NCBI GenBank assembly: GCA_964589115.1
Contig: CAZPUD010000003.1
Span: forward strand, 3,272 to 35,271
Source of the DNA: an uncultured candidatus Brocadiaceae bacterium
GTDB lineage: Bacteria; Planctomycetota; Brocadiia; Brocadiales; Brocadiaceae
Reading direction: 5' to 3'
DNA: 32,000 bases
The notes under the pieces are model-generated. The model worked only from the letters and a program-made list of their open reading frames with translations, ran no database searches and was not told where the DNA came from. Shown here in pieces: positions 1 to 18,785 of this stretch (positions are counted from its first letter, which is position 1; each line of letters opens with the position of its first letter). The position numbers were made by a program, and so were the translations under genes.

Positions 1-75
1 AAGCTGCCATCAATTTTCAAATAATCCACTGGCAGATGTCTGATGTAATTAAATGAAGAAAAACCAATACCAAAA
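1..75 (-). pseudogene. EAL-domain (c-di-GMP phosphodiesterase) fragment, continues past the left edge
   Basis: The reverse complement of 1..80 reads [26 protein letters not shown]. This is the conserved DDFGTGYSS...LKID block from the middle of EAL domains. It is out of frame with the GGDEF ORF that stops at 76..78. The first ~150 aa of an EAL domain are absent. Confidence 0.6.
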
Positions 76-1870
76 TCATCCAATTTTTGTTTTCTGATCG
101 TGTGTATAAATGCAGACACAATTACGGCCTTTTTCCTTCGCCATGTACACAGCAAGGTCAACGGATGTGAGGATCGTTTCTGCTTTATCACCGTGATCGG
201 GAAATAGAGCAATACCAATACTCACGGTGATGCGGATTAGGGTACCATTCTCTACTAAGGTATTATGCTGTACCAATTCCAGAATTTGGTTTGCGATTGA
301 CTCGGCCTCATCTAGATCAATGTGAGGAAGGATGACGGCAAACTCATCACCCCCCAGTCTGGCCAGTAAGTCGGTCTGGCGGCGCAGCCTTGTTTTTATG
401 AGATTTGAGAAATTTATCAGAAGCTTATCCCCGACCTGATGTCCAAAGGACATTGATGTCTTTGAAATTGTCGATATCCAAAAATAGTAACGCCCCTTTT
501 GTCCCGAATCGTCTTGTTTCTGCAAGCCAGTGTTCCAATTCCTCATGAAAGCGGCGCCGGTTAAAGAGGTCTGTAAGGGGATCCCGATTCGCCATATACA
601 GAATTTGGGATTCGTGATTTTTGCGTTCTGTGACATTTCTGCAAATCTCCAGACAGTAAACAATTTTTCCGCTGCTATCTTTAATAGGGCTGGCTATATT
701 TTCTACGTAGACAATTTCTCCGGAAGGGATCACTACCTTTCTCTCGGAAATATGCGGCTTACCATCCTTGTACACCATTTCCACAGGACACCCATCACAA
801 ATAGTGTCTTTACTTTCATAGGACGAATAACATTTATATCCCAACCGTACTCCGAATATATTCTTCACAACATTATTTTGATAAACTATGTTGTAATCTA
901 AATCCTGAATCGTCAGGCCATCTTCCATCGCGTCAATCACCGATTGGAGTTTGTTCTTTTCTAAACGCAGTTCTTCTTCCACCAGCTTACGGTATGTAAT
1001 ATCCTGAACGGTTCCAATCATTCTGACAGGCTTTCCGGTATGGTCAAACTTTACCAAAGCCCTTGAATGAACAATGCGTACAGTTCCATCTTCATGTATT
1101 ACGCGGTAATCAACTTCATAAGATTTTTTTCCATATAAGGCATCATGAATTGATTTTTTGACAAATTCTCTGTCATCAGGGTGAACACAATTGAGAAATC
1201 TCTCATAGGTTATTTCGCTATATTCCTGAGGGTTTAATCCAAAAATACGGTACATCTCATCTGACCAGTAAATTTCATTGGTAATGATATTCCGCTCCCA
1301 GTTTCCGATATGAGCAATTCTTTGAACCTCGGTAAGCCTTTCTTCACTCTTTCGTAAAGATTCTTCCATTTGCTTGCGATCGATACCTATAGCAACATTG
1401 TCTGATACTGATGCCAATATTTTGAGTATATCATCTGAAAGTTGCTTTTTTGAAAATAACGCCAATACCCCTATGAGCCGGTCTTCGACAATCATGGGAT
1501 AACCAGCAAAGGAGACTATTTCTTCCCGTTTTGCCCATTCCTGGTTATGCACTCCGGGGTCTCCAATCACTGCGTTAGTCAGGTGTGGCTTACGCTCTTT
1601 AGCAATGAGGCCAATCTTGTACATACCAACCGGTATAATACTGTGGTCACCATCGATATGGGTATACATCCCTGCACTGCTCTGTAATTCTAAAGCGCCC
1701 TTTTTTTCATTAAATGTCCAAATACGGACGAATGCAGCGTCCAGGCTCTGTACCAAAACCTCAGTGCACCTTTGTAACATGCTTCTCAAAGTGCCCCCAT
1801 GAATAAGGGCAAAACCAATTTCGGCATGTAAGGTTGTCAATTGTGGTAGTTCTGATGGTATTTCTTTCAT
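76..1870 (-). pseudogene. GAF-PAS-PAS-GGDEF diguanylate cyclase, split by a frameshift near 449-452
   Basis: ORF 425..1870 has a GAF-like N-terminus, two PAS regions and the start of a GGDEF domain (LFLDIDNFKDIN). ORF 76..663 continues in another frame with SFGHQVGDKLL...RLGGDEFAVILP...AKEKGRN. The junction DNA is atcaat-g-tcctttggacat, which is 2 nt short of an intact IND-SFGH reading. Confidence 0.8.
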
Positions 1871-2063
1871 CTTTTGTGCTTAGTATTTCGGATTTCCTTT
1901 TCGCAGAGCTGTCTGCGAAAAAACGTAGTATCTTAAAACTTATTTTTTAAGGTTCTTAACTACCTCATAGACTGATTTATACAGTATTTTCGATACCTGT
2001 GCAGTATATCTAACATGGAATAGCGTTTCAATGTAATTAACAGCTATCTCCGATTTAAAACAT

Positions 2064-2292
2064 TTATAATAATTTTGTAAATTCATCCACTGATAAATGA
2101 GCCTGTTTCATGATATGAGATAATGTAGATCTTTTGATAGGATTGTGTGCTGGAACGGTGAGCTTTAGTTTTTTTTCTGTTGTACGTTTTTGCAAACGTA
2201 TGTGACTACCTTTTTGACGGACAACTACCCATCCATCCCGATGCAAAGCCGTTAATGACCTGTCCGTAATTCAAGCTTGGAACTTTTGTCAT
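2064..2292 (-). pseudogene. hicA: HicA-family mRNA interferase toxin, frameshifted after ~15 codons
   Basis: ORF 2064..2246 reads ALHRDGWVVVRQKGSHIRL...VPAHNPIKRSTLSHIMKQAHL, the HicA core. The expected N-terminus MTKVPSLNYGQVIN starts at ATG 2290-2292 but lies in a different frame, with one extra G near 2248-2251. That frame stops after 28 codons. Confidence 0.7.
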
Positions 2293-2309
2293 ATGGCAAT
2301 TTCTAAGAC

Positions 2310-2492
2310 CTATGCATCCGGATTAAACCTCAAATCATCTTCAACTGGTTCAAGATATAATTCAATGGCTTCTCTAATATTTTTCAATGCCTCTTCCTTG
2401 GTATTGCCTTCACTTATGCAGCCAGGAAGCGCTGGAACGATTGCAGTATATCCGCCTTCATTGCTTGGTTCTAAAACTACTTGGATTTTCAT
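2310..2492 (-). CDS. hicB: HicB-family (UPF0150) antitoxin, short form
   Basis: The 60-aa product is MKIQVVLEPSNEGGYTAIVPALPGCISEGNTKEEALKNIREAIELYLE, the typical HicB N-domain pattern. It lies 17 nt upstream of the hicA ATG. Confidence 0.75.
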   Translation of the reverse strand: MKIQVVLEPSNEGGYTAIVPALPGCISEGNTKEEALKNIREAIELYLEPVEDDLRFNPDA

Positions 2493-2577
2493 CTCCCAAC
2501 CTCCAATATTTCGAGCTAATTATCTAAATCGTGTCTTTATTATTGCAATTTATCTGTGTAAAGTCAATGAACAGTAA

Positions 2578-2653
2578 GTAGGGTTGGCAATGTCCATCGA
2601 AAAATAAGCAACATGGGAGGGCGAGCGATATTCTGGTGGGCAATGCACATCCT
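2578..2653. repeat. ~75-bp hairpin repeat, copy 1 (GTAGGGT..GCA.TG.CCA.CGAAAAATAAG...GAGCGATAT..GGTG.GCAATG.CCA)
   Basis: Aligns by eye over its whole length with 4995..5068 in the same orientation. Its two ends are inverted repeats of each other. Confidence 0.7.
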
Positions 2654-2828
2654 GCCTGGCTCCTGGGCTTCTTGATTAATTGTACTCTATAGCAAAAAGA
2701 GTTCGTGTTAACAGTGAAAAATAAGGTGAAATATGGTCTAAAAGGGTATATAATCTGGAAATTACTGAATTATTGAGAAGAGGATTTTGTAGTAAATTTG
2801 TCCAAAGATTTACAAGAAGGAAGGAAAG

Positions 2829-3050
2829 ATGGATTCCAAACAATTACTGGACAGAATTACCATTAATCCCGAAGTAATGGTTGGTAAACCGACTATAAGA
2901 GGACTAAGAATTACTGTCGAACAAATTTTGAAGGCATTAGCTGCTGGAATTACGGTACAGGAACTGCTTGAAGATTATCCTGAATTAGAGCCTGAAGATG
3001 TTCAAGCTGTTTTACTTTATGTGGCTGAATTAGTGTCGGTAAGTTGTTAA
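2829..3050 (+). CDS. DUF433-family small protein (putative antitoxin-like)
   Basis: 73 aa reading ITINPEVMVGKPTIRGLRITVEQILKALAAGITVQELLEDYPELEPEDVQAVLLY, which matches the DUF433 pattern. A purine-rich RBS (aaggaaggaaag) precedes the ATG. Confidence 0.75.
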   Translation: MDSKQLLDRITINPEVMVGKPTIRGLRITVEQILKALAAGITVQELLEDYPELEPEDVQAVLLYVAELVSVSC

Positions 3051-3156
3051 ATAAATTTTGTGTTTATAAAGATGGAAGACTTAGAATCAGAAAATAAAGA
3101 TCAATTTCTATATAAAAAATTCTCACTTATCCTAACCCGAACGAGTTGGAAGAGAA

Positions 3157-3222
3157 ATGTAGGGCGAGGCTTTAGCCTTGCATTTGTTGTAGGAAAGCAA
3201 ACCTAAAGGTTTGCCCTACATG
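3157..3222. repeat. GTAGGGC...GCCCTAC hairpin repeat
   Basis: atgtagggc (3157-3165) pairs with gccctacat (3213-3221). It contains the perfect sub-hairpin gcaaacct-aa-aggtttgc. A related element lies at 22231..22261. Confidence 0.6.
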
Positions 3223-3303
3223 TTACTAGCAAAAATATTTTTCTAAAGATACTAATGCGTAAGTATATGCTTTATATTAAATATTAAAAGATTAAGGTAA
3301 AAA

Positions 3304-3528
3304 ATGAAATTTAAACGTATCACAGTAGACCCCAAAACTTGTACCGGCAAATCATGCATTCGTGGACTTCGCTTCCCAGTCTCGCGTTTACTAGGCCTTC
3401 TAGCCTCTGGAGAAACTAAAGAATCTATTCTCAGGGCATATCCTTACCTTGAGGCAGAGGATATTGATGAAGCCTTGAGGTATGCTGCTTATCTTGCAGA
3501 AGAAGAAACAATGGAATTTGCAAGGTGA
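3304..3528 (+). CDS. DUF433-family small protein
   Basis: 74 aa reading ITVDPKTCTGKSCIRGLRFPVSRLLGLLASGETKESILRAYPYLEAEDIDEALRYA. Confidence 0.7.
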   Translation: MKFKRITVDPKTCTGKSCIRGLRFPVSRLLGLLASGETKESILRAYPYLEAEDIDEALRYAAYLAEEETMEFAR

Positions 3529-3556
3529 AGTTTAGCATGGTTAATAAATAGTTTCA

Positions 3557-3835
3557 TCAGCTTATTTCTACGCAGATATCTTCTTTTCTGATCAAATCCA
3601 GTGCATACTGGACGCATGCCTTTATGTCTTCTGTTTTTAAATCCGTGTAGTAATTTTGGATGATTTCATTGAAAGGGATTCCTTCCTGGACTAATTCAAG
3701 AACATTATCAACAGTTATTCTTGTATCTTTTATGTACGGTTTCCCAAAATGTATTTTAGGGTTAACGGTTATGCGATTTCTATAATCTTTAATTTTACAC
3801 CTCCACTTTTGAAGGATCTGAACAATTTGTAGCAC
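3557..3835 (-). CDS. DUF433-family small protein; start codon uncertain
   Basis: Reads ITVNPKIHFGKPYIKDTRITVDNVLELVQEGIPFNEIIQNYYTDLKTEDIKACVQYA. The only in-frame start is a GTG at 3833-3835, which lies inside the outer arm of the foldback repeat. No ATG is available. Confidence 0.6.
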   Translation of the reverse strand: MLQIVQILQKWRCKIKDYRNRITVNPKIHFGKPYIKDTRITVDNVLELVQEGIPFNEIIQNYYTDLKTEDIKACVQYALDLIRKEDICVEIS

Positions 3836-4415
3836 TTTAGTTTTTTTGAAAAAACCCTGAAAAGTTCCATTAGGAGCGATATATTAATAGAACAAGAATC
3901 TGCACCATGTTAAGCTCCAGGGGAGCGGTATATATCCACCTATAGTATCCAAAGGATGAAGCCGAACATATCCTCAAATTACGAAAGACTACTGAAATGG
4001 TCATTGCGAGGGTCTTTTCCGAAGCAATCCCAAAGCGGGAATTTGGATTTCGGATTTTAGATGTCGGATTTCGGATTTTACACTTTGGTTTTTCATTCCG
4101 CAATCTGCAATCCCAAATCTGCAATTGGATACTTGCGGAGCCTGTTTCGGGCGTATCAGTGAGGAATCCCCGGGTTTGCTTCAGCTTCCGCCTTGCAACC
4201 GCATCACTCCTCGCAATGACATTTTAAGGTTTTCCGTAATATTCCATATACTTGTATTCAAACAAAGACTCAACTTTCGTCATATTCTGTTCGGTTTCAT
4301 CTGTTGGATACTATAAATATTATGTCGCTCCTCAGGAGCTTTATTCTCACGTTTTGTTTTAGCTATTTATATTTCGCCCTTATGGGGTTATTTTTAAAAA
4401 ACTAAAGTGTTACAA
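3827..4415. repeat. ~590-bp nested inverted-repeat (foldback) element
   Basis: There are three levels of arms. The outer arms are ttgtagcactttagtttttttgaaaaa (3827-3853) versus tttttaaaaaactaaagtgttacaa (4391-4415). The second level is ttccattaggagcgatatat (3865-3884) versus tatgtcgctcctcaggagc (4321-4339). The third level is a perfect 12-bp pair, gtcattgcgagg (4000-4011) and cctcgcaatgac (4209-4220). The centre holds short direct repeats: ggatttcggatttta at 4045-4059 and 4066-4080, and aatctgcaat at 4102-4111 and 4116-4125. Confidence 0.7.
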
Positions 4416-4450
4416 TAATTTAAACGCTTATGAAATTCAAAGTTTCAGAG

Positions 4451-4568
4451 TTGGTTCAATTGTCCACGATTAAACCGAAACGTTTAGCATGTCTCATATG
4501 ACTGGAATAAACTAAAACGTATAGGCATATGCTAAACGAAGGGTTCAATCTACAAGATTGAACCAACC
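4451..4568. mobile_element. 118-bp MITE-like palindromic element, copy 1
   Basis: Termini are TTGGTTCAAT...ATTGAACCAA, with ~40-bp imperfect terminal inverted repeats. It has three internal hairpins, including cgtttagcat...atgctaaacg. It is about 80-85% identical by eye to 13547..13663 in the same orientation. Confidence 0.75.
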
Positions 4569-4668
4569 ATAGGCCATAATAGGCCCTGCTTATTGAGGTT
4601 CTTCTATCTGCCTCATAGACTGATTTGTATAGCCTTTTTGATACTTCTAGAAAATCCTTCCCATCCAT
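4456..4668 (-). pseudogene. HEPN-like gene, 3' part replaced by the MITE
   Basis: The first 33 codons (MDGKDFLEVSKRLYKSVYEADRRTSISRAYYG) resemble the first helices of small HEPN proteins. From 4568 downwards the reading frame runs through MITE sequence (LWLVQSCRLNP...). Confidence 0.45.
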
Positions 4669-4952
4669 TAAGAAATTTGAAATGTTAAAACAAATTTTGA
4701 TCTGGAATCTTTAGAAATAAAATTACGGATTTTGTTTCTAAATTCCTTCTCTCTTTTAATAATATTATCTACTTTGTCGTTTATTTTTACATCAAATCTA
4801 ACCTTTCGATAATTTTCTATTTCGCAATCTGATTGCAGGGTTACTTTGATGTCTTCAATATTTTGAAAGGTCTCTAGAATAAGCTTATAGTAAGTTTCAA
4901 CATCAGAAGTGATCTTTTCCTGTTCACAAAAATCCGATATTTCTTTATCCAA
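4668..4952 (-). CDS. hypothetical 94-aa protein, translationally coupled to the HEPN-like remnant
   Basis: Its stop overlaps the next ATG as TAATG at 4666-4670. It has a TTG start, is very AT-rich, and contains no motif I recognise. Confidence 0.35.
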   Translation of the reverse strand: MDKEISDFCEQEKITSDVETYYKLILETFQNIEDIKVTLQSDCEIENYRKVRFDVKINDKVDNIIKREKEFRNKIRNFISKDSRSKFVLTFQIS

Positions 4953-4994
4953 TACAGGGATACCTTGAGAAAACTTAAAATTGCATTAAGTAAT

Positions 4995-5068
4995 GTAGGG
5001 TGAGCATTGCCCACCGAAAAATAAGTGACGTGGGAGTGTGAGCGATATGGTGAGCAATGTCCACCCTA
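4995..5068. repeat. ~75-bp hairpin repeat, copy 2
   Basis: Aligns with 2578..2653. Arms are gtagggtgagcattgcccacc and ggtgagcaatgtccaccctat. Confidence 0.7.
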
Positions 5069-5211
5069 TCCGGCTAATTGCTATCATAAGTACCTTGTTT
5101 TATATAGCAATGAAAGTTAGAATATTGCCACTCAATGGATGATTTTACTAATTATAGGAAATTTTTTTGTATTTGATTAAGAATATTCTAATGAATAATT
5201 TCATTACCGCA

Positions 5212-7632
5212 TTATCTAATCCTTACCCTCTCTTGGTTTCTTTGCTTGATCTTGGCATAAAGTTCTATTTCTTTTTCATGTTCAACAGTAACCACAACAG
5301 CATAGTTTTGTAAATAATTGTTATCAGTTATCCACCTGTTCTTACAAATAGTTGCGATAACAAGCGGTTTATTAGTATCAAATCTTGGTTTTCCTTCCCA
5401 TATCTTTATACCTTTTTGATGAACTCCTAATTTCCTGAAGTTTCCGCCAGGATTCAAATCTATTTCCTTCAGCTCAATTCCTTTAGGAATAATGATCTCA
5501 CTTGTATTATCAATCTTTAACTGTTTAAAACATTGTTCAATTTCTTTAATTTCTAGAGAATGAAATAGATGAAATTCCATTGTGCATCCAAGATAATCAA
5601 TTCTGTTTTTGTTTACCAATGGATCGAAGACTAAAGTAATTACTAGTTGCCTATTCCCTTGTTCATCAATGAATTCTTCTGGAAGATAAAATTGATAGAA
5701 ATGGATAGAATCAAGTTTCATTTTATCATCTGCTATTAACAATACCCTATTATCTTGAGAAAACGTTGCGTTAGTCAAAGAAGGAATTCCATATCCATAA
5801 ACATTAAGAAGACTTGCAAGTTTTTCGTTACTATCGGACAATTTTATATTTTGTAAAAAGCCGGGTCTTTCAGCAGGAATACTTGTGGACGATAGAACAA
5901 TCGCTTTGATCATATTTGCAGAATAATTGGGATATTTATTCCAGAGCCGGGCGATACAATTTGAAACTTTTGGTGTGCTGAGGCTTGTACCAATACCAGC
6001 GTTGAATAATCTTCCCTCTTGAATAAAATCCTTGTTCAGAGATATTATTTTACCACCAATATTATTTGTCGGTTGATGACGCCCAGTTATTACATTACCG
6101 CCTATTTCTACTAATTCAGGCTTTATCATACCCTTATAACCTGGACCGACTCTTGTAAAAGGTGAAGGATAGAATGTTTTTGCCGGAGATGATAAAATGT
6201 CTGACTGGCTTTTAATATCAGGACCATAGGGCGGGGCAATTGATCCAACGGTTAACGCAAGGGCAGATGAAGCAGGTTCGATTATCTTTACGTTATCATT
6301 AGTTCCATCTTGGAAATAAGTCGGATATTTATTCAAGTCAAAATCACAGTAGTTACCTGTTGATATAACAAAAATAATTTTAAACTCTTTAGCAAGTTCA
6401 TCAACTAAAGAAGACAGATTAAATTGTTTTCTACCAGAAAATGTTCTATTATCTAAATTGCCAAAAGAAATATTTATTACCTTGCAATTCGGATAATTTT
6501 CAGCAATCCATCTAACAGCTTTTTCAAACTGATGTTCAAGAAGTTCCTCTGGGTCATATACTGCTTCTATGTTTCCATCTGACTGTTTTTCAGCAAACAT
6601 AACTTTGGCTGAATATATCCAGACTTCGGGATTAAAATTTTTTCTATTAATGCATTCTTTTACATCACCATATAAGGCTATGCCCGCTACTCCTGTTCCG
6701 TGTCCGACATCATCTACAGGTTTATCTTCTTCAATTTTAGTACTTTTTCTTGTAACTATAGCTTTTTCATTGCCAACTGCTTTTTCTAAAAGTGGATGAT
6801 TGGAAACAATACCAGAATCCATTATGAGTATCCCTATTGCACTGTCAGTTGGAGATCCCCCAATTTTCAATTCTTCCTTAGGAATATTGAGTGTGGAAAC
6901 TGTTACATAAGGTTTAGGAGGTCTATCTATTGAAGCAATTTCTTTGAACACAGCAATTTCATCAAAAAGAGTCTTATTCCCATAAATCCTTAAAAGACAA
7001 AAATTATTAGTAATTAATTTATCTGTAATTCTACCTTTCTTATCCTCAATAAATTTTTCCAATCCTGGAAGGTTGTTATCTCCCTCAATGAAGTGACGAA
7101 GCTTTTGTTTCTCCATTTTCCATATTTCTATATCTAGATAACCGAATTCATTCTTTCCTAATGGATTTTGCTTTAACTGTTTTCCAATTTTTTCTTTTGG
7201 AGGGATATCCATAAGTTTTTCAATGGCGTCAAAGAACTTATATTGCTTTTTTCCCTCCGAATAATCTTTTAATTTTTTTGAAAATTCGCCCAATGCATTG
7301 TTTTCTGCAAAAACAATCCAAAATCCTTTTTTATCAGGAGATGGAGAAATAACTTCTATACCCATGCGACTTAACTCATTTCGGAATAATTCCTCACTAA
7401 CGGCTTGGTTCACTTCTATTTTAAAAATAAGTGAAGGATCAAAATATTTGCCGTAATTTTTCTTCAGAAAATCCTGATCTTGTTTGAAATTTTGAAATGT
7501 TTTTATCTGAGTTTGATAAAAATCATTTTTATTCCTTCCCTTAACTGTTTTATACCCACCGCCACCGTATTTACTTCTATTGTATTCCTGATCTATTTTT
7601 GGCAGTTTTAAATGTTCATATTGCTTCGGCAT
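5212..7632 (-). CDS. Cytoplasmic subtilisin-like serine protease (peptidase S8), IetS-like
   Basis: The S8 catalytic set is in canonical order: D272 (MDSGI, 6817-6819), H311 (HGTGVAG, 6700-6702), N427 (STGNY) and S550 (GTSLSTP, 5983-5985). The N-terminus is hydrophilic with no signal peptide. The ATG lies 2 nt after the upstream ATPase stop. Confidence 0.85.
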   Translation of the reverse strand: MPKQYEHLKLPKIDQEYNRSKYGGGGYKTVKGRNKNDFYQTQIKTFQNFKQDQDFLKKNYGKYFDPSLIFKIEVNQAVSEELFRNELSRMGIEVISPSPDKKGFWIVFAENNALGEFSKKLKDYSEGKKQYKFFDAIEKLMDIPPKEKIGKQLKQNPLGKNEFGYLDIEIWKMEKQKLRHFIEGDNNLPGLEKFIEDKKGRITDKLITNNFCLLRIYGNKTLFDEIAVFKEIASIDRPPKPYVTVSTLNIPKEELKIGGSPTDSAIGILIMDSGIVSNHPLLEKAVGNEKAIVTRKSTKIEEDKPVDDVGHGTGVAGIALYGDVKECINRKNFNPEVWIYSAKVMFAEKQSDGNIEAVYDPEELLEHQFEKAVRWIAENYPNCKVINISFGNLDNRTFSGRKQFNLSSLVDELAKEFKIIFVISTGNYCDFDLNKYPTYFQDGTNDNVKIIEPASSALALTVGSIAPPYGPDIKSQSDILSSPAKTFYPSPFTRVGPGYKGMIKPELVEIGGNVITGRHQPTNNIGGKIISLNKDFIQEGRLFNAGIGTSLSTPKVSNCIARLWNKYPNYSANMIKAIVLSSTSIPAERPGFLQNIKLSDSNEKLASLLNVYGYGIPSLTNATFSQDNRVLLIADDKMKLDSIHFYQFYLPEEFIDEQGNRQLVITLVFDPLVNKNRIDYLGCTMEFHLFHSLEIKEIEQCFKQLKIDNTSEIIIPKGIELKEIDLNPGGNFRKLGVHQKGIKIWEGKPRFDTNKPLVIATICKNRWITDNNYLQNYAVVVTVEHEKEIELYAKIKQRNQERVRIR

Positions 7633-7634
7633 CT

Positions 7635-8654
7635 TTATTTAACTCCATTTATCCGCCCTTTAATGTCTTTTCTTCGCTTTTGTTCCATAATGGCAAAAAT
7701 TAGATCATTCATTTCAACCCTGCTTCTATCGCTTAGTACACTATTTTTTATTGATTCGAAACAAATCAAGGCAATATCAGAAGGAGCCATACCATCTGTT
7801 TGTTTGGATAATTTTTTAATATCGAGAGAGTTACCTTTAGTTATTACCTTTAGATATTTTTCGAAAATAAGTATCCTCCTTTTTTCGTCAGGAATATCAA
7901 AATAAAGTATTTCGTCAAATCTCCGCCATAATGCAGGATCCAAAAGGTGTTGATGATTTGTAGCAGCGATTATCAAACTCTCTCCCATGAAGTTATCAAG
8001 CATTTGAAGGAAATTATTCACAACTCTCTTAATTTCACCATGCTCATAATGGTCGTCTCTATGCTTCCCAATTACATCGAATTCATCGAACAAAACAACC
8101 CATTTACCTCGTTCAAAAAAATCAAATATTTTTCGTAAGTTTGTAGCAGTTTCTCCAAGGTAAGATGAAATAATAGAATCAAATCTAGTATAAACCATTG
8201 GATATCCAAGTAACGAACTCATTAGTTGAGCTGTTAGTGTTTTGCCAGTACCGGGAGGACCACAAAACAGTAGCTTTTGTTTTGGTTTTATACCGTAAGT
8301 AGCAAGAATTTCTGATTTGCCATATTCCTGTACTATTCTGTTTAGGGCAGAGATAATATTATCTTCCAAGATTACATCTGACCAGTCTAAGTGAAATTCC
8401 TTTATCTCAAGAAGAGGAAATCCTTTTTCTGTATCTCTTGGTATTGGTAAGTTTTCTTTAAATCTTTTTTGATAACCTTCGAAAGGAATATCTATATTAC
8501 TATTGTTATTTAAGATTTCATTCAATTCTTTAACAAGGATTCTATGTTTTTTTCTTTCTTCATTCTTTATTATTTCATTTGCTGCTTTCAAAAATGAGTC
8601 ATTATCTTTGTTAATGAATGATTGGAAAAGTTGTTTTATAAGATCGCTATTCAT
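7635..8654 (-). CDS. Classical AAA+ ATPase, IetA-like partner of the S8 protease
   Basis: Walker A GPPGTGKT (8238-8261), Walker B VVLFDEFD (8076-8099), sensor-1 ATN (aa 231-233) and ALWRRFD (aa 241-247). Confidence 0.85.
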   Translation of the reverse strand: MNSDLIKQLFQSFINKDNDSFLKAANEIIKNEERKKHRILVKELNEILNNNSNIDIPFEGYQKRFKENLPIPRDTEKGFPLLEIKEFHLDWSDVILEDNIISALNRIVQEYGKSEILATYGIKPKQKLLFCGPPGTGKTLTAQLMSSLLGYPMVYTRFDSIISSYLGETATNLRKIFDFFERGKWVVLFDEFDVIGKHRDDHYEHGEIKRVVNNFLQMLDNFMGESLIIAATNHQHLLDPALWRRFDEILYFDIPDEKRRILIFEKYLKVITKGNSLDIKKLSKQTDGMAPSDIALICFESIKNSVLSDRSRVEMNDLIFAIMEQKRRKDIKGRINGVK

Positions 8655-8698
8655 TATCCGTTTCTATTTCTCAAAAGCTTTTATTTAATGTAACCATG

Positions 8699-8728
8699 TA
8701 TTTTACATTTCATTTAAAATGTAAAATA
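8699..8728. promoter_or_regulatory. Perfect 12-bp inverted repeat 45-74 nt upstream of the ATPase start; possible operator
   Basis: tattttacattt (8699-8710) pairs with aaatgtaaaata (8717-8728), with a 6-nt spacer. It is almost pure A/T, so it could also be fortuitous. Confidence 0.25.
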
Positions 8729-9021
8729 ATAATTCTATAGATTATGTGTATAAATAGCTAAATTATACATGAGAACTTTTGAGATTCCCACCATCTTCTT
8801 ATGAATGTTTTTGCAATCTCGTGAAAAGGGTTGGTAAAAGGGGTGTATCTTTACAGTTATCTCGGAATAGCTTTGTAAATCAAAACTTTATATAGCATTA
8901 CCCTGTAAAAATTTCTTTTTGTAAATTTTTATAACTCCCTTGATTTCCCATTTTAAGAGGGAACTTAGTTTTAGATACGATACTCTATATATTTTGTCAA
9001 ATTCTCTACAGATAAAAAATA

Positions 9022-12000
9022 TCAGAAAGAAACTTCTCCCTTAACTATTTTAATTTCCTCTTCTGTTAGCCCATACAGTTTGTAAACTATTTCATCTATC
9101 AAATTATCTATAGCTTTAATTTTTGTTTTTAGTGGTTCAAGGATTGAGATGCTTTGAATAAATTGATCCTCAAATTTTTCTTGAGTTTTCCGGTCTGATG
9201 GGTCTATTGATAGCTTATTTCTATTCCTCTTTAAGATTTCAATGAGTTGGTTAAAGTCATGTTCGTGGTATTCCTTTATAGTGGTCTTGTTTGAAAGTTC
9301 ATCGATTTCTAAGCCGATTTCACGTTCAAGCCATTTTAGGAAACCTTTGATTTCCTCATTTTTCTTTTCGTTCATTTTGATCATCTCTTCGGCGATATAG
9401 GCTAGAAAATCATGTACTGCATCAGATTGTTCCTTCTCTAGTTCTGGAAAACCATATTTATCTTTTAAAAGCCTTAAATCTATAAAGGATAAAATTTCTT
9501 CAATTATTCCATTTGTTAAATATTGTTGATAAAGTTTAATTGCATTATTAACAAGGTTTTTTTTAAGAGATGGAGATGTGATGAATTTAATTGAACGAAT
9601 TGGAATTTTTTGTAATTCAGCAAGGGTTGTTTGTCTAAAGTCGTCTTTTGTCGCCAGTGTAGAAAAATTAAGATACATGAAAGAATGAAATTTGCTGTTA
9701 ATGTTGGCAAGAAGATAATAAGGAGAATAGTTATCCATTGTTGTTATAAAAGGGTTAACATCCTTTTTAGAAACAAACGGATCACTTATAAATGTAGCCA
9801 TTAGTCTATCTGCTCTACTTATTATTCTTCTGATAAGAATTCTAGGATTTGTATAAAATCTTATCAAATGGGTAACTGAACTAAAATCAATATATTTTCT
9901 TGATTCTTCAATAAATTGATACCTATAAACTTGTCCGATTACATAAGGTAAATAATTATCTGTTCTTTTGTATTGATCATAACTGAAGAACGATTCAACA
10001 ATACCTTGAGTTGATTTTGTAAGAGAACCTAGAGTAACTATATAATTTTTATTTAGTTTATCTAGGAGTTTATAATTGTGAATATTGGTGTATACTTTGT
10101 AATCTATATTATTTGTAATATAGTTAAAAGGAATAGAGTTTGTATCACAAGTATTACAGGAGATATTGTTGATTTTGACTTTTTTACTATATTGCTTTGC
10201 TAAGAAATACCGATCTTTAGGAGAATATTCGGCTTTTGTAAAAATAGCTATGCAAGTATCAATATAAGCATCAGGGAATATATCATACGGAAGATTAATT
10301 ATTTGGGAAAGAAAAGTCTTATTTGAGAATGCTACTTGTCGAAATTTAAGATAATTTTCACCTGTTTGCCAAGCTACAGGTGTAATCATACCTAGTAACC
10401 CATTATTTTTAAGTAGACTTATACTTATGCTCATAAAAAGTATGGAAGTATCATATTTTCTATAAGCAACTTCTAGTTTTTGGGTATAAAAATAACTGTC
10501 TTCATCAGAAATATCTTCCGTTGGAATATAAGGTGGATTTCCAATTACACAATCAAACCCAGAATTTTCTTTCTTTTCTACTTTTTGTTCCAGCGTGCCA
10601 ACGCGCTCAAAGAAGACCTCAGGAAATTCAATTTCCCAGTGGAAAAACCGTTTCCCCTTTGCTATTTTCTCGATAGATTCAATTGTTTTTCTGTGCTTTT
10701 CATGCAATGAGTCAATAGACTTTTTAAGGTTATCCAGGTCTATTGTGCTACTTACCTCCGGTAAAAATATCCTGGCTTCTTTTATCCCAAAATATTCAGA
10801 GACAAGTATATCAAGGAGTATTCTATATCCGACAATACTTTTATCTGCGTCTCTGTATTTCCGTTCCGAATCTTTTACCTGCTGATATGTTGCATCTGAA
10901 AGACTGGACACAAAGAGCATGTTTCTGATAGCTCTATTTAAAGGTTCCAGGCTTATGCGAAATAACTTCTTTTCCGTTGCGTTTCTAAGCGTTTCCAAAT
11001 TTGAACCTATAAGTGAATTACCACACTTCAAATGATGATCCAGGAATGAGAGCGGTGCACCGAGGACAAAGGAGTCGAGCCATAATGATAGTTTTGCAAG
11101 CTCAACGGCCATCTCGTTCAGATCGACACCATAGATACACCGTTTCATCACGGTTCGTTTCATGAGATTTACTTCTGTAAGTTTGCTTTCATCTATGCTT
11201 ACCCCTTGCCGCTTTATTCCTTCGAGTATCTCATGTTTCAACTTCTCTATCTTTCTTATTACCGGATTTTCAGGAAAATTGGCAAGAAATGAAATGATCT
11301 TGTCTGTTATGAAGTCGACGGTATGGACAAGGAAGTGGCCGCTGCCCATAGCGGGATCCAGCACCTTGATATCAAATACCGTCTCAAAGAGGTCTTCTTC
11401 CAGATTAACTATCCTGTCAATATGGGGTCCTTTCGGTTCTCCAGGATGATCCCAGTACCTCCAGTCTTTTGGTTTTTTCAACTGTTTACGTTGTTTTTCA
11501 TAAAGTGTTTCCAATTCAGAAAGGATCTCTTGCGCCCTTTGAAATCGTATTCCCAGTACCGGGCCTACGGTATTCTTCACAATGTATTCAACGATATAAT
11601 GCGGCGTGTAGTAAGAACCGGTGGCCTTACGTTCGTGCTTCGAGTTTTCTATGTAAATCTCGCCTTTTTCTTTTCTCCTGTATATCCTGGTATTTGCATC
11701 AATCTCCGATTCCTTTTTCCAGAGTATTTTGCTGCCTTCTTTGATCTCAACCATAGGCTCATCTGCAATACGGATATGGAACTCAAGGAGTCCTTCATAA
11801 ATGTTACCCAGATGACGGACGTCTAAGGATGAGTAATCAATGAAGGGTTTTTGACCCGGTGTATATTCACCTTGCTGGTCTATGGTGAGAAGTGCAATTG
11901 CATCGGCAAGAAACGGGTCGGATATTTTATTGGCTGCTAAAAAACTCTCAGGCAGGGTTTCAAAAAGGCCGCCATTATAGATAGGAATATTCAAGGCCTT

Positions 12001-13104
12001 GTCGCCCCTCTCTATGATCCTGCAAAGAGACTCAAGGCGCGACCAATAATCATAGGTTTGATGGCTCATACCTTCGAGGATAGTTATTTCAAGCTCGCTG
12101 GCAATATCTTCTTTTAATCTCTTCAGGCTCTTTTTGTAGTAACGGTCCTGATCATTTACCGGCAAAAGTGCCCTCGATTCTGCATATAACAGGAATAAAA
12201 GCCGGTAAAGGAGGGTAAGACAGCCGTTGAATATTTCTTTTAAATCTTCATCGGTCTCTTTTTTGATGTGCTTTTCGTTGTAACGATATTCGATAAAGCC
12301 TTCCGCTAAACCCTCAAAGATCTTATCGAATATAAGATTTTTGAGGTTTTCGCTGACCCTTGCAGCATAATCCTCACTGCCCTTAATATGCTGGTCAAGC
12401 CACGTCTTTCCTGTTACCGGATCGGGAATAAAGACATCTTTTGAGAAGAAGAGGTAAAAATATTTGAAGGTATCGGGATTACTGCAATTGATAATCTCCT
12501 CTAAATCCACTTCATAATAATTCCCGGAACGTGAGGCGGCACGATAGTAAAAGAGGCGCCATACCTTCCCGTTTGTTAATATTGCCCATTGAATACGACT
12601 GTTGGAATTGTGGTAAACGTCGTCCAGGTATTTTACCGTTTGTGCTGTCGGGTCACGATTATCGAGGATATCTTTTGGATCGGTATCGTTTAAGCTCCTT
12701 CCCCAGTATTTTGCCTCCAGGATGGTAAGAGGGTAGGAGTAGAAGTATTGAGGATTATCCTTTCCCTTGCGGGCTTCTTTATGAGAATCCTTGTCTTTAA
12801 ATAATGCGTAGTCGGGTCTTCTCTTCTTCGTACCTCTTTGGGTGGTTGGCTGGACGTCCCATTCGTAATCAAGGGATGCAAGTACCGGTCTTATAAATTT
12901 ATCTTCGAGATTTGCCTCTTCTCCCGGGCCGAGCTTTAATGATTGGATGGATTTGTAAGCTTGTTTTATATTTTCAAATGCCGTGTGAACCTTTTCATTG
13001 TCTGTATTCCATAAGGAGGTTGATTGTAGCCTGTGTTCGAGATAGTTGTTTGAGAATAGTTTTTGGTTTTTCAAAAAGAACAGCTTTTCCTGCTCTTGCA
13101 CCAT
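9022..13104 (-). CDS. Single-chain type IIG restriction-modification enzyme: PD-(D/E)xK nuclease + gamma-class N6-adenine methyltransferase + target-recognition region
   Basis: Nuclease motif RPD98 (12811-12813) ... E130-A-K132 (12709-12717), followed by WAILTNGKVWRLFY. Methyltransferase motifs are GSYYTP, motif I DPAMGSG (11338-11358), YGVDLNEMAVELAKLSL, FHWEIEFPEVF and motif IV NPPY (10528-10539). A C-terminal ~500 aa follows, ending YGLTEEEIKIV. A GAGGA RBS sits 6 nt before the ATG. Confidence 0.85.
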   Translation of the reverse strand: MVQEQEKLFFLKNQKLFSNNYLEHRLQSTSLWNTDNEKVHTAFENIKQAYKSIQSLKLGPGEEANLEDKFIRPVLASLDYEWDVQPTTQRGTKKRRPDYALFKDKDSHKEARKGKDNPQYFYSYPLTILEAKYWGRSLNDTDPKDILDNRDPTAQTVKYLDDVYHNSNSRIQWAILTNGKVWRLFYYRAASRSGNYYEVDLEEIINCSNPDTFKYFYLFFSKDVFIPDPVTGKTWLDQHIKGSEDYAARVSENLKNLIFDKIFEGLAEGFIEYRYNEKHIKKETDEDLKEIFNGCLTLLYRLLFLLYAESRALLPVNDQDRYYKKSLKRLKEDIASELEITILEGMSHQTYDYWSRLESLCRIIERGDKALNIPIYNGGLFETLPESFLAANKISDPFLADAIALLTIDQQGEYTPGQKPFIDYSSLDVRHLGNIYEGLLEFHIRIADEPMVEIKEGSKILWKKESEIDANTRIYRRKEKGEIYIENSKHERKATGSYYTPHYIVEYIVKNTVGPVLGIRFQRAQEILSELETLYEKQRKQLKKPKDWRYWDHPGEPKGPHIDRIVNLEEDLFETVFDIKVLDPAMGSGHFLVHTVDFITDKIISFLANFPENPVIRKIEKLKHEILEGIKRQGVSIDESKLTEVNLMKRTVMKRCIYGVDLNEMAVELAKLSLWLDSFVLGAPLSFLDHHLKCGNSLIGSNLETLRNATEKKLFRISLEPLNRAIRNMLFVSSLSDATYQQVKDSERKYRDADKSIVGYRILLDILVSEYFGIKEARIFLPEVSSTIDLDNLKKSIDSLHEKHRKTIESIEKIAKGKRFFHWEIEFPEVFFERVGTLEQKVEKKENSGFDCVIGNPPYIPTEDISDEDSYFYTQKLEVAYRKYDTSILFMSISISLLKNNGLLGMITPVAWQTGENYLKFRQVAFSNKTFLSQIINLPYDIFPDAYIDTCIAIFTKAEYSPKDRYFLAKQYSKKVKINNISCNTCDTNSIPFNYITNNIDYKVYTNIHNYKLLDKLNKNYIVTLGSLTKSTQGIVESFFSYDQYKRTDNYLPYVIGQVYRYQFIEESRKYIDFSSVTHLIRFYTNPRILIRRIISRADRLMATFISDPFVSKKDVNPFITTMDNYSPYYLLANINSKFHSFMYLNFSTLATKDDFRQTTLAELQKIPIRSIKFITSPSLKKNLVNNAIKLYQQYLTNGIIEEILSFIDLRLLKDKYGFPELEKEQSDAVHDFLAYIAEEMIKMNEKKNEEIKGFLKWLEREIGLEIDELSNKTTIKEYHEHDFNQLIEILKRNRNKLSIDPSDRKTQEKFEDQFIQSISILEPLKTKIKAIDNLIDEIVYKLYGLTEEEIKIVKGEVSF

Positions 13105-13205
13105 TCAAGTCCTCGAGAAGAATCGGGGATTATAAATACCTGGATAATTTTTTGTGATTACTCAAAATTGTGTTGAATAGCTTGAATTGGAGAATCTGCT
13201 ACAAG

Positions 13206-13300
13206 ACCCACCCCTGTCCCCTCCCGAGAGGGGAATAAAGAAGTTTTCTCACGAGAGAGGAATAAAAAGTCCCCTCTTGGGAGGGGATTTAGGGGTGGGT
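13206..13300. repeat. G/C-rich inverted repeat (ACCCACCCCT..CCCCTCCC.AGAGGGGA)
   Basis: Left arm is acccacccctgtcccctcccgagagggga (13206-13234). Right arm is tcccctcttgggaggggatttaggggtgggt (13270-13300). The spacer holds a degenerate direct copy of the inner arm, ctcacgagagaggaataaa. Confidence 0.7.
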
Positions 13301-13546
13301 AAAAGTATCAGGAATATTACATTATGGCTTTATTCAATATAACTTTGAATAACGACATTCTCTTTTCATTGGCAGGAAGTATAAAATATTTGAAAAGTTA
13401 TTTCAATGCTATTTTATTTTGATTGATGATGTGCTTACTAAATGAATTTACGTATAGGAATTACAACCGACCATGTAGGGTATATTCAATATGCTAATCT
13501 ACGCAGATGTTAAGGACTAACTACAAGTCGTTATAGTTGGTTATAG

Positions 13547-13663
13547 TTGGTTCAATCGTCCACGATTGAACCTAAACGTTTAGCATGTTTCATATGCTTG
13601 GCACCAATCAAAAACGTACAGGCCAATTAAACACATGGTTCAATCTACAAGATTGAACCAACC
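13547..13663. mobile_element. MITE-like palindromic element, copy 2
   Basis: Same termini and hairpins as 4451..4568 (ggttcaatcgtccacgattgaacc and ggttcaatctacaagattgaacc). The central part has diverged. A 10-bp tandem duplication, ttatagttgg x2, abuts the left end (13531-13550). Confidence 0.75.
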
Positions 13664-13896
13664 CTGAGGTCTACATTCCGCTTTAATAACCTTTCAATAT
13701 CAAGCCATATCCTGTCTTCTGCATCATATTTGATATCAATTTCTTCCCATTCCAGGTATTTGCTTTTCGATCTGAAATATACAGCAATATCTACGTCCGA
13801 TTCCCTGTGAGTTGTTTCCCTGGCATAAGAGCCGAACAAAAATGCCATGAGGACATCGCCCCTCTTTTCAAAATAATCTTTAAGGATTTTTATCAT
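13645..13896 (-). pseudogene. Minimal nucleotidyltransferase (MNT-type antitoxin), C-terminus truncated by the MITE
   Basis: LFGSYARE...SDVDIAV is the pol-beta-type NTase signature. After ...KRNVDL the frame enters the MITE (RVGSIL, then stop). The start is either ATG 13894-13896, 4 nt after the glmS stop, or TTG 13906-13908, overlapping it. No HEPN partner ORF lies downstream. Confidence 0.65.
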
Positions 13897-13900
13897 TCGG

Positions 13901-16185: not shown

Positions 16186-17190
16186 ATGAAATATACTATA
16201 AAACAAATCCAATCTATTATTGGCGGGAAAATTACCGGTGATCCGGATACTCTCATTACGGGAATTGCCAGTATTGATGCCGCAAAAGAAGGGGACATAA
16301 CTTTTATCAAGGATGATGCACTCATCCCGAAAGCAATCGCTTCAATGGCTTCTGCGATAGTTGTACACCGTGATATCGGGACCTTAAAAAAACCTCAAAT
16401 TATAAAAGAAGATCCGTTTCTTGCCTTCACCAAATTTATGGAGGTTGTAGGCAGGGAAAGATATATGCGCCCATCCGGTATCCATCCAACCGCTGTCGTC
16501 AGTAAAGATGCTATAGTTGGAGAAGGTGCCTCTTTTGGTGCCTATGTCGTTATTGATGATTACGTAAAGATCGGGAATAACGTCACTATTTACCCGAACA
16601 CATTTATAGGTAAGGGAAGTTCCGTAGGTGATAATTCTGTTATCTATGCAAATGTTGTTATCAGGGAAGGTGTCACCATCGGGAAACGGGTTATTGTGCA
16701 CTGCAGTAGTGTTATCGGAGATGATGGATTCGGTTACCTGCAAATACAGGGTAAACATATGAAGATACCACAGATCGGAACGGTTGAGATAGGAGACGAT
16801 GTTGAAATCGGTGCCATGGTGACGATTTGCCGTGCCGCACTCGATAAGACGGTTATAGGGAATGGAGTAAAAATAGATAACCACTCACATATTGCCCATA
16901 ACGTTACGGTGGGAGATAACAGTATGCTTGTTGCTTATGCCAAGATTGCGGGTAGTACCAGGATTGGGAAGAATGTTCTGATTGCAGAAGATGTGGGAAT
17001 AACAGACCACGTGACGATTGGTGATAATTGTATTATTGGCGGGGGATCTAATGTTTATAAGAGTTTAGATGACCGTTCCATCGTATGGGGTTCACCTGCC
17101 AAACCAATCAATGAGGAAAAACGCATTCAGGTATTAATTAGAAAACTGCCGGAAATGTATAACGCAATAAAGAAATATTGTAAGATCTAA
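16186..17190 (+). CDS. lpxD: UDP-3-O-acylglucosamine N-acyltransferase
   Basis: 334 aa with an LpxD-type N-terminal domain (IGGKITGDPDTLITGIASIDAAKEGDITFIKD), followed by a long left-handed beta-helix of hexapeptide repeats. Confidence 0.85.
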   Translation: MKYTIKQIQSIIGGKITGDPDTLITGIASIDAAKEGDITFIKDDALIPKAIASMASAIVVHRDIGTLKKPQIIKEDPFLAFTKFMEVVGRERYMRPSGIHPTAVVSKDAIVGEGASFGAYVVIDDYVKIGNNVTIYPNTFIGKGSSVGDNSVIYANVVIREGVTIGKRVIVHCSSVIGDDGFGYLQIQGKHMKIPQIGTVEIGDDVEIGAMVTICRAALDKTVIGNGVKIDNHSHIAHNVTVGDNSMLVAYAKIAGSTRIGKNVLIAEDVGITDHVTIGDNCIIGGGSNVYKSLDDRSIVWGSPAKPINEEKRIQVLIRKLPEMYNAIKKYCKI

Positions 17191-18551: not shown

Positions 18552-18785
18552 TTATTTGTGTTCTTCAATATATTTAATGGCATCACCAACAGTACGTATT
18601 TTTTCAGCCTCTTCGTCCGGGATGTTCATATCAAAGGCATCCTCAAATTCCATAATCAATTCTACAGTGTCGAGTGAATCGGCTCCAAGATCATTAATAA
18701 ACGAAGTATCTCTCGTAATTTGTTCGGATTTTACTCCCATTTGTTTTGTGATAATTTCTTTAACCTTCTCTTCAATTGCTGACAC
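18552..18785 (-). CDS. acpP: Acyl carrier protein
   Basis: 77 aa with the [20 protein letters not shown] phosphopantetheine-attachment motif. Confidence 0.95.

Follow-up and report, generated by a model that had tools for sequence, protein, structure and literature searches.

The IetAS gene pair of the Agrobacterium plasmid pTiC58 is reportedly owed to Yamamoto et al. in 2009, and IetAS as an anti-phage system, catalogued as 'IetAS' in PADLOC and DefenseFinder, is said to go back to Gao et al. in 2020. As related in two later articles, IetAS was first described in 2009 as a plasmid-stability toxin-antitoxin system, with IetS as the toxin and IetA as the antitoxin (PMC13069673; PMC8562856). 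Homologous systems protect Escherichia coli and Bacillus subtilis from phage (PMC13069673; bioRxiv 10.1101/2022.08.27.505566; bioRxiv 10.1101/2022.08.21.504612), and in a homologous system defence requires the active site of the protease (PMC13069673). Cells do not tolerate a loss or mutation that affects only IetA, and ietA mutants could not be built (PMC13069673; PMC8562856). The system of Bacillus cereus acts by abortive infection and is triggered by the phage protein YosG of SPbeta (bioRxiv 10.1101/2022.08.27.505566). Here we analyzed a stretch of 32,000 nucleotides (the window) from an uncultured Candidatus Brocadiaceae bacterium (assembly GCA_964589115.1, contig CAZPUD010000003.1, positions 3,272 to 35,271), in which an ATPase gene and a protease gene, ietA and ietS, follow glmS and a type IIG restriction-modification (R-M) gene within an island of defence and toxin-antitoxin genes. 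We consider it likely that they form a functional two-gene IetAS module with a toxin-antitoxin and abortive-infection mode of action, carried on a mobile cassette in a Brocadiaceae defence island.

Identity of the gene pair

Both gene products were compared with PADLOC and Pfam profiles. IetA matched the PADLOC IetA model PDLC02196 with E = 2.3e-93 (residues 5-329 of 339, profile positions 6-325 of 374), and IetS matched the IetS model PDLC02198 with E = 7e-113 (residues 5-806 of 806, profile positions 4-786 of 795). Pfam recognized AAA (9e-29) and AAA_lid_3 in IetA, and Peptidase_S8 in IetS (2e-36, residues 268-615). The two genes are read from the same strand, and the stop codon TAA of ietA (7635-7637) is separated from the ATG of ietS (7630-7632) by 2 nt; the gene coordinates of Candidatus Brocadia sp. 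WS118 (locus L001) show an identical gap. The 2-nt distance between stop and start argues for translational coupling of ietA and ietS. The GC content is 33.0% for ietS, 31.8% for ietA and 32.3% for the whole cassette described below; glmS has 43.0%, and the remainder of the window about 41%.

The ATPase motifs of IetA are Walker A GPPGTGKT at residues 132-139 (with K138), Walker B VVLFDEFD at 186-193, sensor 1 ATN at 231-233 and ALWRRFD at 241-247. Across 17 orthologues, K138, D190, E191, N233 and R244/R245 are invariant or conservatively substituted, the aromatic pore loop (pore-loop-1) SS[YF]LG at 163-167 is kept and the pore-loop-2 segment GK.R.D..EHGE is likewise invariant. The nearest solved structure is D2 of p97/Cdc48 (1e-57); PAN and FtsH were matched as well. 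Conserved pore loops and ATPase motifs are what would be expected of an active, substrate-gripping AAA+ protein.

In IetS the catalytic set D272, H311, N427 and S550 is invariant in 50 homologues, giving the pair, together with the Walker A and B motifs, sensor 1 and Arg fingers of IetA, the intact motifs of an IetAS member. The presence of a signal peptide was judged by Kyte-Doolittle hydropathy. The N-terminus is hydrophilic (best 12-residue mean starting in the first 40 residues, -0.64), and no hydrophobic segment was detected in the whole protein (maximum 19-residue mean 1.27). IetS is predicted to be a cytoplasmic protein without a secretion signal, as an IetAS protease should be. The preliminary description of this stretch had reported the two minus-strand open reading frames (ORFs) with their 2-nt spacing and the GGAG 10 nt upstream of ietS, the AAA motifs, the S8 residues, the lack of a signal peptide and the low GC content; all of this was confirmed. 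The matches with AAA and Peptidase_S8 profiles that it anticipated were found, and the cryptic secretion signal that it named as a counterargument did not appear.

More than 400 IetS homologues were found in the protein database at E <= 1e-10. Among the 120 homologues listed, all but two carry PF27160 (Y4kK_N), PF27210 (Y4kK_2nd) and PF00082 according to precomputed Pfam labels. Of the two exceptions, P0009 is a 535-aa fragment labelled with PF00082 alone, and P0071, of 717 aa, lacks PF27160. The precomputed labels of an identical protein (P0001) likewise place Y4kK_N and Y4kK_2nd ahead of the S8 core, which is the arrangement of the Y4kK-type subfamily. By its sequence, the pair is an IetAS of this subfamily, belonging to a catalogued family that PADLOC and Pfam already model, and is not a new kind of system. 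The earlier suggestion of a divergent or new variant, with about 260 N-terminal amino acids free of nameable motifs, did not survive: the PADLOC IetS sub-model fits residues 5-806, and the N-terminal region is already described by PF27160 and PF27210.

The domain structure of IetS was derived from an AlphaFold2 model (predicted local distance difference test, pLDDT, 85.2; predicted template modelling score, pTM, 0.78) and from a separate model of residues 1-262 (pLDDT 88.5). In the N-terminal domains, residues 35-60 are modelled as a long helix, and residues 68-141 and 164-236 as two ferredoxin-like beta-alpha-beta-beta-alpha-beta modules. A Foldseek search of these modules against the Protein Data Bank gave weak, generic matches to tandem ferredoxin-like folds (IlvH ACT 2e-4, RRM, KH). 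Their domain family is small, with 184 cluster representatives among 1.84 billion, and is always N-terminal. An invariant D-R-P-P-K-P-Y linker (aa 236-242) precedes the S8 core. The best structural matches of the whole protein are ProN-Tk-SP (3afg, 5e-24), KP-43 (1wmd, 2e-19), the pro-form of EpiP and furin; since these are pro-form or multidomain subtilases, the second N-terminal module stands at the position of a propeptide. IetS as a whole matched viral jelly-roll capsid proteins weakly over 170-220 columns (prob 0.9-0.99), with no position within the protein reported; placed at the C-terminal domain, these matches suggest that it is probably jelly-roll-like. It is common to IetS subfamilies, because the sequence aligns with the S8 protein of an Agrobacterium plasmid through residue 796. 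A solved structure of any IetS relative was not found.

The motif H-L-x-L-P of the N-terminal tail is present in 49 of 50 homologues. Residues 1-10 have a pLDDT of 87 and form beta-bridges in the full-length model, compared to a pLDDT of 46 and no bridges in the model of residues 1-262. The tail is thus placed with confidence only together with the rest of IetS, and it is predicted to dock on the protease or the C-terminal part. Two further proposals for IetS were rejected. A hyper-variable 'sensor' domain was not seen, all domains being alike with 0.49-0.59 pairwise column identity, and the strict LIPY/F motif of intracellular subtilisins (ISPs), written as [LVI][IFLV]P[YFH], matches no more than 2 of the 50 tails.

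Conserved pairing and the mobile cassette

By tblastn, an IetA homologue is located directly upstream and on the same strand in all 19 loci that have a full-length IetS relative and upstream DNA, in bacteria as well as archaea; the 62 loci with other subtilases, which share the S8 core alone, have no IetA homologue. The neighbours were surveyed by tblastn with a control set and by ten individual PADLOC scans. Pairing of ATPase and protease is far beyond chance. R-M homologues flank IetAS in 10 of 21 loci compared to 0 of 62 control loci, a contrast that is only indicative and no formal enrichment test because the R-M queries came from IetS loci. In the Brocadia loci L001 and L006 a type I R-M system (HsdR, HsdM, RhuM, HsdS) precedes the pair, and HicBA follows it in L001 and L002. 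In Methanogaster (L004), HsdM, Fic and HepT/MNT are found before the pair, and HsdS and Fic after it. Type III Mod and/or Res are neighbours in L007, L008, L020, L022 and L023, and a DrmD-like SNF2 helicase lies upstream of ietA in L020 and L023, which is the published ietHAS layout. Single neighbours are a GajB-like protein (L019), an AriA/mad3-like protein (L015) and an integrase (L003). The neighbours of IetAS in relatives are typical of defence islands, and co-localisation of type III R-M and ietAS was reported earlier for E. coli (bioRxiv 10.1101/2022.08.21.504612). The view that the two genes are a co-expressed conflict or defence pair of the IetAS type was thereby borne out by full-length PADLOC matches, by the pairing, which had been named as a check, and by the defence genes next to relatives; of the enrichment expected near defence genes, the R-M flanks were found, and they count as indicative.

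The loci L020 (3305-17841), L023 (5774-16777) and L022, from Nitrosomonas and other proteobacteria, follow the order DrmD-like SNF2 helicase, IetA, IetS, type III Mod and type III Res, which is the ietHAS layout embedded in a type III R-M locus. A duplicated fragment of Mod (8369-8689) lies just upstream of ietA in L020.

Blastn comparisons showed that the pair is part of a cassette of 3.65 kb whose DNA is 84.4% identical to Candidatus Brocadia sp. WS118 (L001 8756-12422) and 83.7% identical to a Brocadiaceae metagenome-assembled genome (MAG; L006). Homology ends within one base of the ietS stop codon on one side and 187-207 bp upstream of ietA on the other. In both relatives the cassette follows hsdS of a type I R-M operon and not a type IIG gene. 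The closest relative with the locus (L089, GCA_039794405.1) has, in this order, lpxD, glmS, a type IIG gene and dinB/lexA, and lacks IetAS; the GlmS protein of the window is 88-93% identical to Brocadiaceae GlmS and assigns the host to that family. The cassette is mobile and moves as a discrete unit between R-M-associated hotspots. Its own 5' region sets ietA apart from the type IIG gene. In a three-way alignment of the window, L001 and L006, TGTATAATT is invariant in this region, as is TGTATAAT at 8762-8769, a candidate extended -10 element. The ratios of nonsynonymous to synonymous substitution (dN/dS) among the three cassettes are 0.12-0.13 for ietS and 0.06-0.09 for ietA, which points to purifying selection and to functional genes.

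The nearest IetS relatives come from Candidatus Brocadia sp. WS118 (84%) and a Nitrospirota MAG (77%), followed by a plateau at about 50% identity that includes Dehalococcoidia, WS2, Omnitrophota, WOR-3, Methanogaster, Methanolobus, Aenigmarchaeota and others. This broad distribution indicates wide horizontal transfer across bacteria and archaea.

Within the type IIG gene, the specificity region (9415-10527) has a GC content of 28-29% and no DNA match to the L089 orthologue, and the flanking parts are 88% (10528-13433) and 84.5% (9028-9414) identical to L089 DNA. The encoded protein shares 81.5% identity with that of L089 over residues 2-990 and 54% over residues 1087-1359. This looks like a swap of the target-recognition domain. 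Such a swap of the specificity region accounts for the GC step within the gene, and the step was rejected as a border of the cassette. In L001, two fragments (12527-12778 and 13282-13431) resemble the C-terminal 50-80 residues of the type IIG enzyme of the window with 67-72% identity; they bracket HicBA just downstream of IetAS and probably are what is left of a type IIG gene at this hotspot. In L090 (11952-21721, compared with positions 1-13900 of the window), glmS is followed by RmuC, a 1601-aa UvrD/DEAD helicase, GIY-YIG, PIN and HepT/MNT. The site downstream of glmS is variable among the Brocadiaceae loci L090, L089 and the window, and behaves as a defence-island hotspot.

Table 1. Features of the IetAS cassette and neighbouring genes in the window
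Feature	Position	Strand	Description
Mobile IetAS cassette	5211..8861	-	3.65 kb; 207-bp conserved 5' region, ietA and ietS
ietS	5212..7632	-	ORF, 806 aa; intracellular S8 (subtilisin-family) protease, predicted toxin/effector
IetS C-terminal beta-sandwich (aa 626-790) and terminal helix (aa 791-805)	5215..5757	-	seven beta-strands in the model
IetS S8 core (aa 263-625)	5758..6846	-	from Pfam and catalytic residues
IetS N-terminal domains (aa 34-237)	6922..7533	-	from predicted structure; correspond to Pfam Y4kK_N and Y4kK_2nd
IetS N-terminal tail (aa 1-33)	7534..7632	-	[ED]-H-L-x-L-P-[FL]-[YI], then basic Gly-rich flexible linker
ietA	7635..8654	-	ORF, 339 aa; classic-clade AAA+ ATPase, predicted antitoxin
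ietS ribosome-binding site GGAG	7643..7646	-	read from sequence; within the 3' end of ietA, 10 nt before the ATG
IetA lid (aa 277-318)	7701-7826		
IetA AAA core (aa 128-253)	7896-8273		
IetA N-terminal region (aa ~1-90)			family-specific
Conserved upstream region	8655..8861	-	travels with the cassette; candidate promoter
Type IIG R-M gene	9022..13104	-	1360 aa; recognized domains (Eco57I, N6_Mtase, TaqI_C, MmeI_Mtase) are for methyltransferase and specificity only
HicA	2064-2246		
HicB	2310-2492		
DUF433 genes, three separate	2829-3050, 3304-3528, 3557-3835		no recognizable partner toxin

Mode of action and alternatives

By analogy with the homologous systems, IetS would be a cytoplasmic serine-protease toxin and IetA a hexameric AAA+ ATPase held at a fixed ratio to it by translational coupling, with ATP hydrolysis by IetA keeping IetS harmless. 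An infection cue, which in the single case studied is a specific phage protein, would stall or divert IetA and break the restraint. Freed IetS would then cleave cellular and/or phage proteins, and growth would stop before the phage cycle is completed. The same restraint logic would make the cassette addictive to its host. For the Y4kK-type subfamily we suggest that IetA may engage IetS via the conserved HLxLP tail and the Gly-rich linker; the aromatic pore loop fits an ATPase that threads or grips its partner. On the strength of the models, the tail could further be proposed as a latch docked on the protease body that is also a handle gripped by the IetA hexamer, giving an ATP-dependent clamp that controls the protease, an idea we put forward as tentative and rather doubtful. 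If it were true, a phage protein or an energy collapse that stalls IetA would release the toxin, a new form of protease-toxin gating.

Several points weigh against a functional anti-phage IetAS module. For anammox bacteria we know of no phage available to define the trigger. The toxin-antitoxin and abortive-infection roles are carried over from remote homologues that are 21-33% identical, and the alignment of IetS with the Agrobacterium plasmid protein, at 21% identity, covers residues 267-796 only. The NCBIfam models IteA_antiphage and IteS_antiphage were the top matches with scores below their equivalog cut-offs (236 vs 510 bits and 105 vs 900 bits), so that the subfamily differs from the curated seeds. 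A scan of viral contigs yielded no IetAS relatives. Scans for sigma-70 promoters and terminators gave no signal above shuffled sequences, and the extended -10 promoter of the cassette, inferred from its conservation, stays a candidate. An Rfam scan of the window gave no matches. The preliminary description had regarded trigger, substrate and mechanism as not established. This was too cautious for the toxin-antitoxin roles, abortive infection and the YosG trigger, all of which are published, and is right for the substrate and molecular mechanism of IetAS, which were still open for the whole family in April 2026 (PMC13069673).

The pair might instead be a pure addiction module that stabilizes the island through post-segregational killing, without an anti-phage role in the host: once a cell loses the cassette, IetA activity would decay first and IetS would kill that cell. 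The mobility of the cassette and its location among the toxin-antitoxin genes HicAB and DUF433 agree with this, as do the 2009 description as a plasmid-stability toxin-antitoxin, as cited later (PMC13069673; PMC8562856), and the Mycoplasma homologue, a chromosomal toxin-antitoxin pair with no known phage role (PMC8562856). We nevertheless regard a pure addiction module as unlikely, given the phage protection by homologous systems in E. coli and B. subtilis and the R-M genes beside the pair in 10 of 21 loci and none of 62 controls; addiction and anti-phage roles are, moreover, not mutually exclusive.

The unfoldases p97 D2 (1e-57), PAN and FtsH are the nearest relatives of IetA, its aromatic pore loop and pore-loop-2 segment are conserved and translational coupling suggests a complex of fixed stoichiometry, all of which would suit a cooperative unfoldase-protease machine like PAN-proteasome or FtsH, with IetA as an activator or adaptor that hands unfolded substrates to IetS. 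Subtilases, however, are open-cleft endopeptidases and not chambered, so that no unfoldase is needed. In addition, the homologous protease is toxic alone and neutralized by the ATPase, and deletion of the ATPase only is lethal (PMC13069673; PMC8562856), which makes a degradation machine improbable in our view. A mixed form, in which IetA restrains IetS before infection and delivers to it afterwards, is conceivable. Similarly low is the chance that cassettes in R-M operons guard the R-M enzymes as PrrC does and are set off by an inhibition of restriction. The reading as an ordinary secreted subtilase with a propeptide and an unrelated adjoining ATPase is effectively refuted: although the second N-terminal module stands where a propeptide would and pro-forms are the best structural matches, IetS has no signal peptide or hydrophobic segment, the ATPase linkage is strict (19/19 vs 0/62) and both proteins match the IetA and IetS models end to end.

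The value of this work lies mainly in correct annotation, with IetAS assigned confidently in an anammox (Brocadiaceae) genome. A Y4kK-type IetAS cassette was shown to move as a discrete 3.65-kb unit among R-M-associated hotspots, with bacteria and archaea both represented. The domain map of one IetS subfamily and the conserved pore loops of IetA offer concrete mutants and specific hypotheses. As an experimental entry the copy in the window is no better than the E. coli and Bacillus systems, because its host cannot be grown in pure culture and lacks a phage model.

Further features of the window and known systems

The preliminary description had seen an R-M gene and toxin-antitoxin debris beside the pair. 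The type IIG R-M gene, HicAB and the DUF433 genes are indeed present; HicAB, whose DNA is 83.6% identical to the annotated HicBA pair after IetAS in Candidatus Brocadia WS118, may for that reason be intact rather than debris. An element of about 120 nt resembling a miniature inverted-repeat transposable element (MITE) is found in the window at 4450-4568 and 13546-13667, and in L089 near 8904-9372, 16855-17047 and 18599-18724. Inverted repeats GTTGGTTCAATC...GATTGAACCAAC form its termini, it is predicted to fold with about -40 kcal/mol, and Rfam gave no match; since one copy overlaps the ORF 4456-4668, this ORF is probably spurious. Direct repeats at 1957-1996/4605-4644 (40 nt, 83%) and 2578-2631/4995-5048 (54 nt, 81%) bracket the HicAB genes and, separately, a 94-aa ORF (4668-4952), and the 54-nt repeat holds the near-palindromes GGTGRGCAWTGCYCACC. 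This suggests small gene cassettes flanked by common repeat elements.

Positions 3827-4415 form an imperfect palindrome of about 590 nt from the nested inverted-repeat pairs 3827-3857/4385-4415, 3941-3968/4288-4315 and 3992-4011/4209-4228; the region includes a 21-nt tandem repeat (4045-4086), and none of its ORFs has a family match. On the minus strand at 76-1870, two overlapping ORFs together represent a split gene for a GAF-PAS-PAS-GGDEF diguanylate cyclase: 425-1870 ends at position 50 of the GGDEF profile, and 76-663 spans positions 49-160. The split is a frameshift, from a pseudogene or an assembly error.

Among solved proteins, Tk-SP (3afg) and KP-43 (1wmd) presumably have the same layout as IetS, with a propeptide-like module, an S8 core and a C-terminal beta-jelly-roll. 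Unlike IetS they are secreted and have no partner ATPase, and they are 14-17% identical to it. ISPs share with IetS the leaderless cytoplasmic subtilase and a short conserved N-terminal peptide containing proline (PMC6220982). Their LIPY/F pro-peptide is inhibitory and runs over the active site as a beta-strand (PMC6220982), and beta-bridges to the body of the enzyme are predicted for the IetS tail as well. In IetS, however, 250 residues of extra domains separate tail and core, and the likeness is one of analogy and not of membership. The tail is no sufficient inhibitor, since IetS homologues are toxic on their own.

The pair y4kL/y4kK on pNGR234a of Sinorhizobium fredii NGR234, the namesake of Y4kK_N and Y4kK_2nd, is alike in its N-terminal domain families according to precomputed Pfam labels, and residues 297-798 of IetS are about 30% identical to the S8 gene product of pNGR234a. 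In the current RefSeq record (L086, NC_000914.2 16371-25837) this S8 gene, presumably y4kK, appears to be interrupted by an IS21-family element (istA/istB), and a SIR2-family gene lies nearby. We know of no functional test of y4kK of pNGR234a.

By its description, the TA132/133 operon of Mycoplasma mycoides is comparable: it is chromosomal, encodes an AAA-ATPase (353 aa) and a subtilisin-like protease (757 aa) and was shown to be a toxin-antitoxin system (PMC8562856). Its flanking repeats suggest horizontal transfer, and no phage role was shown (PMC8562856). With ietHAS (Liu-DS4; PMC13069673) the pair shares the IetA and IetS core. It is not an ietHAS variant, because an SNF2 helicase is missing from the window, where the type IIG R-M gene lies upstream of the pair; the helicase is found only in the distant relatives L020 and L023.

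In a comparison with the Agrobacterium plasmid pair, a pair of the prototype type, IetA aligned along its whole length with 33% identity (2e-60), and the N-terminal 260 aa of IetS have no detectable sequence similarity to the plasmid protein. The Agrobacterium IetAS is plasmid-borne, whereas the pair in the window is chromosomal in an anammox planctomycete. It resembles the IetAS of pTiC58 and PADLOC in several ways: the ATPase gene comes first and nearly abuts the protease gene, the ATPase is a classic-clade AAA+ protein with intact motifs, and the S8 protease, about 800 aa long, has no leader and carries an additional domain at its C-terminus.

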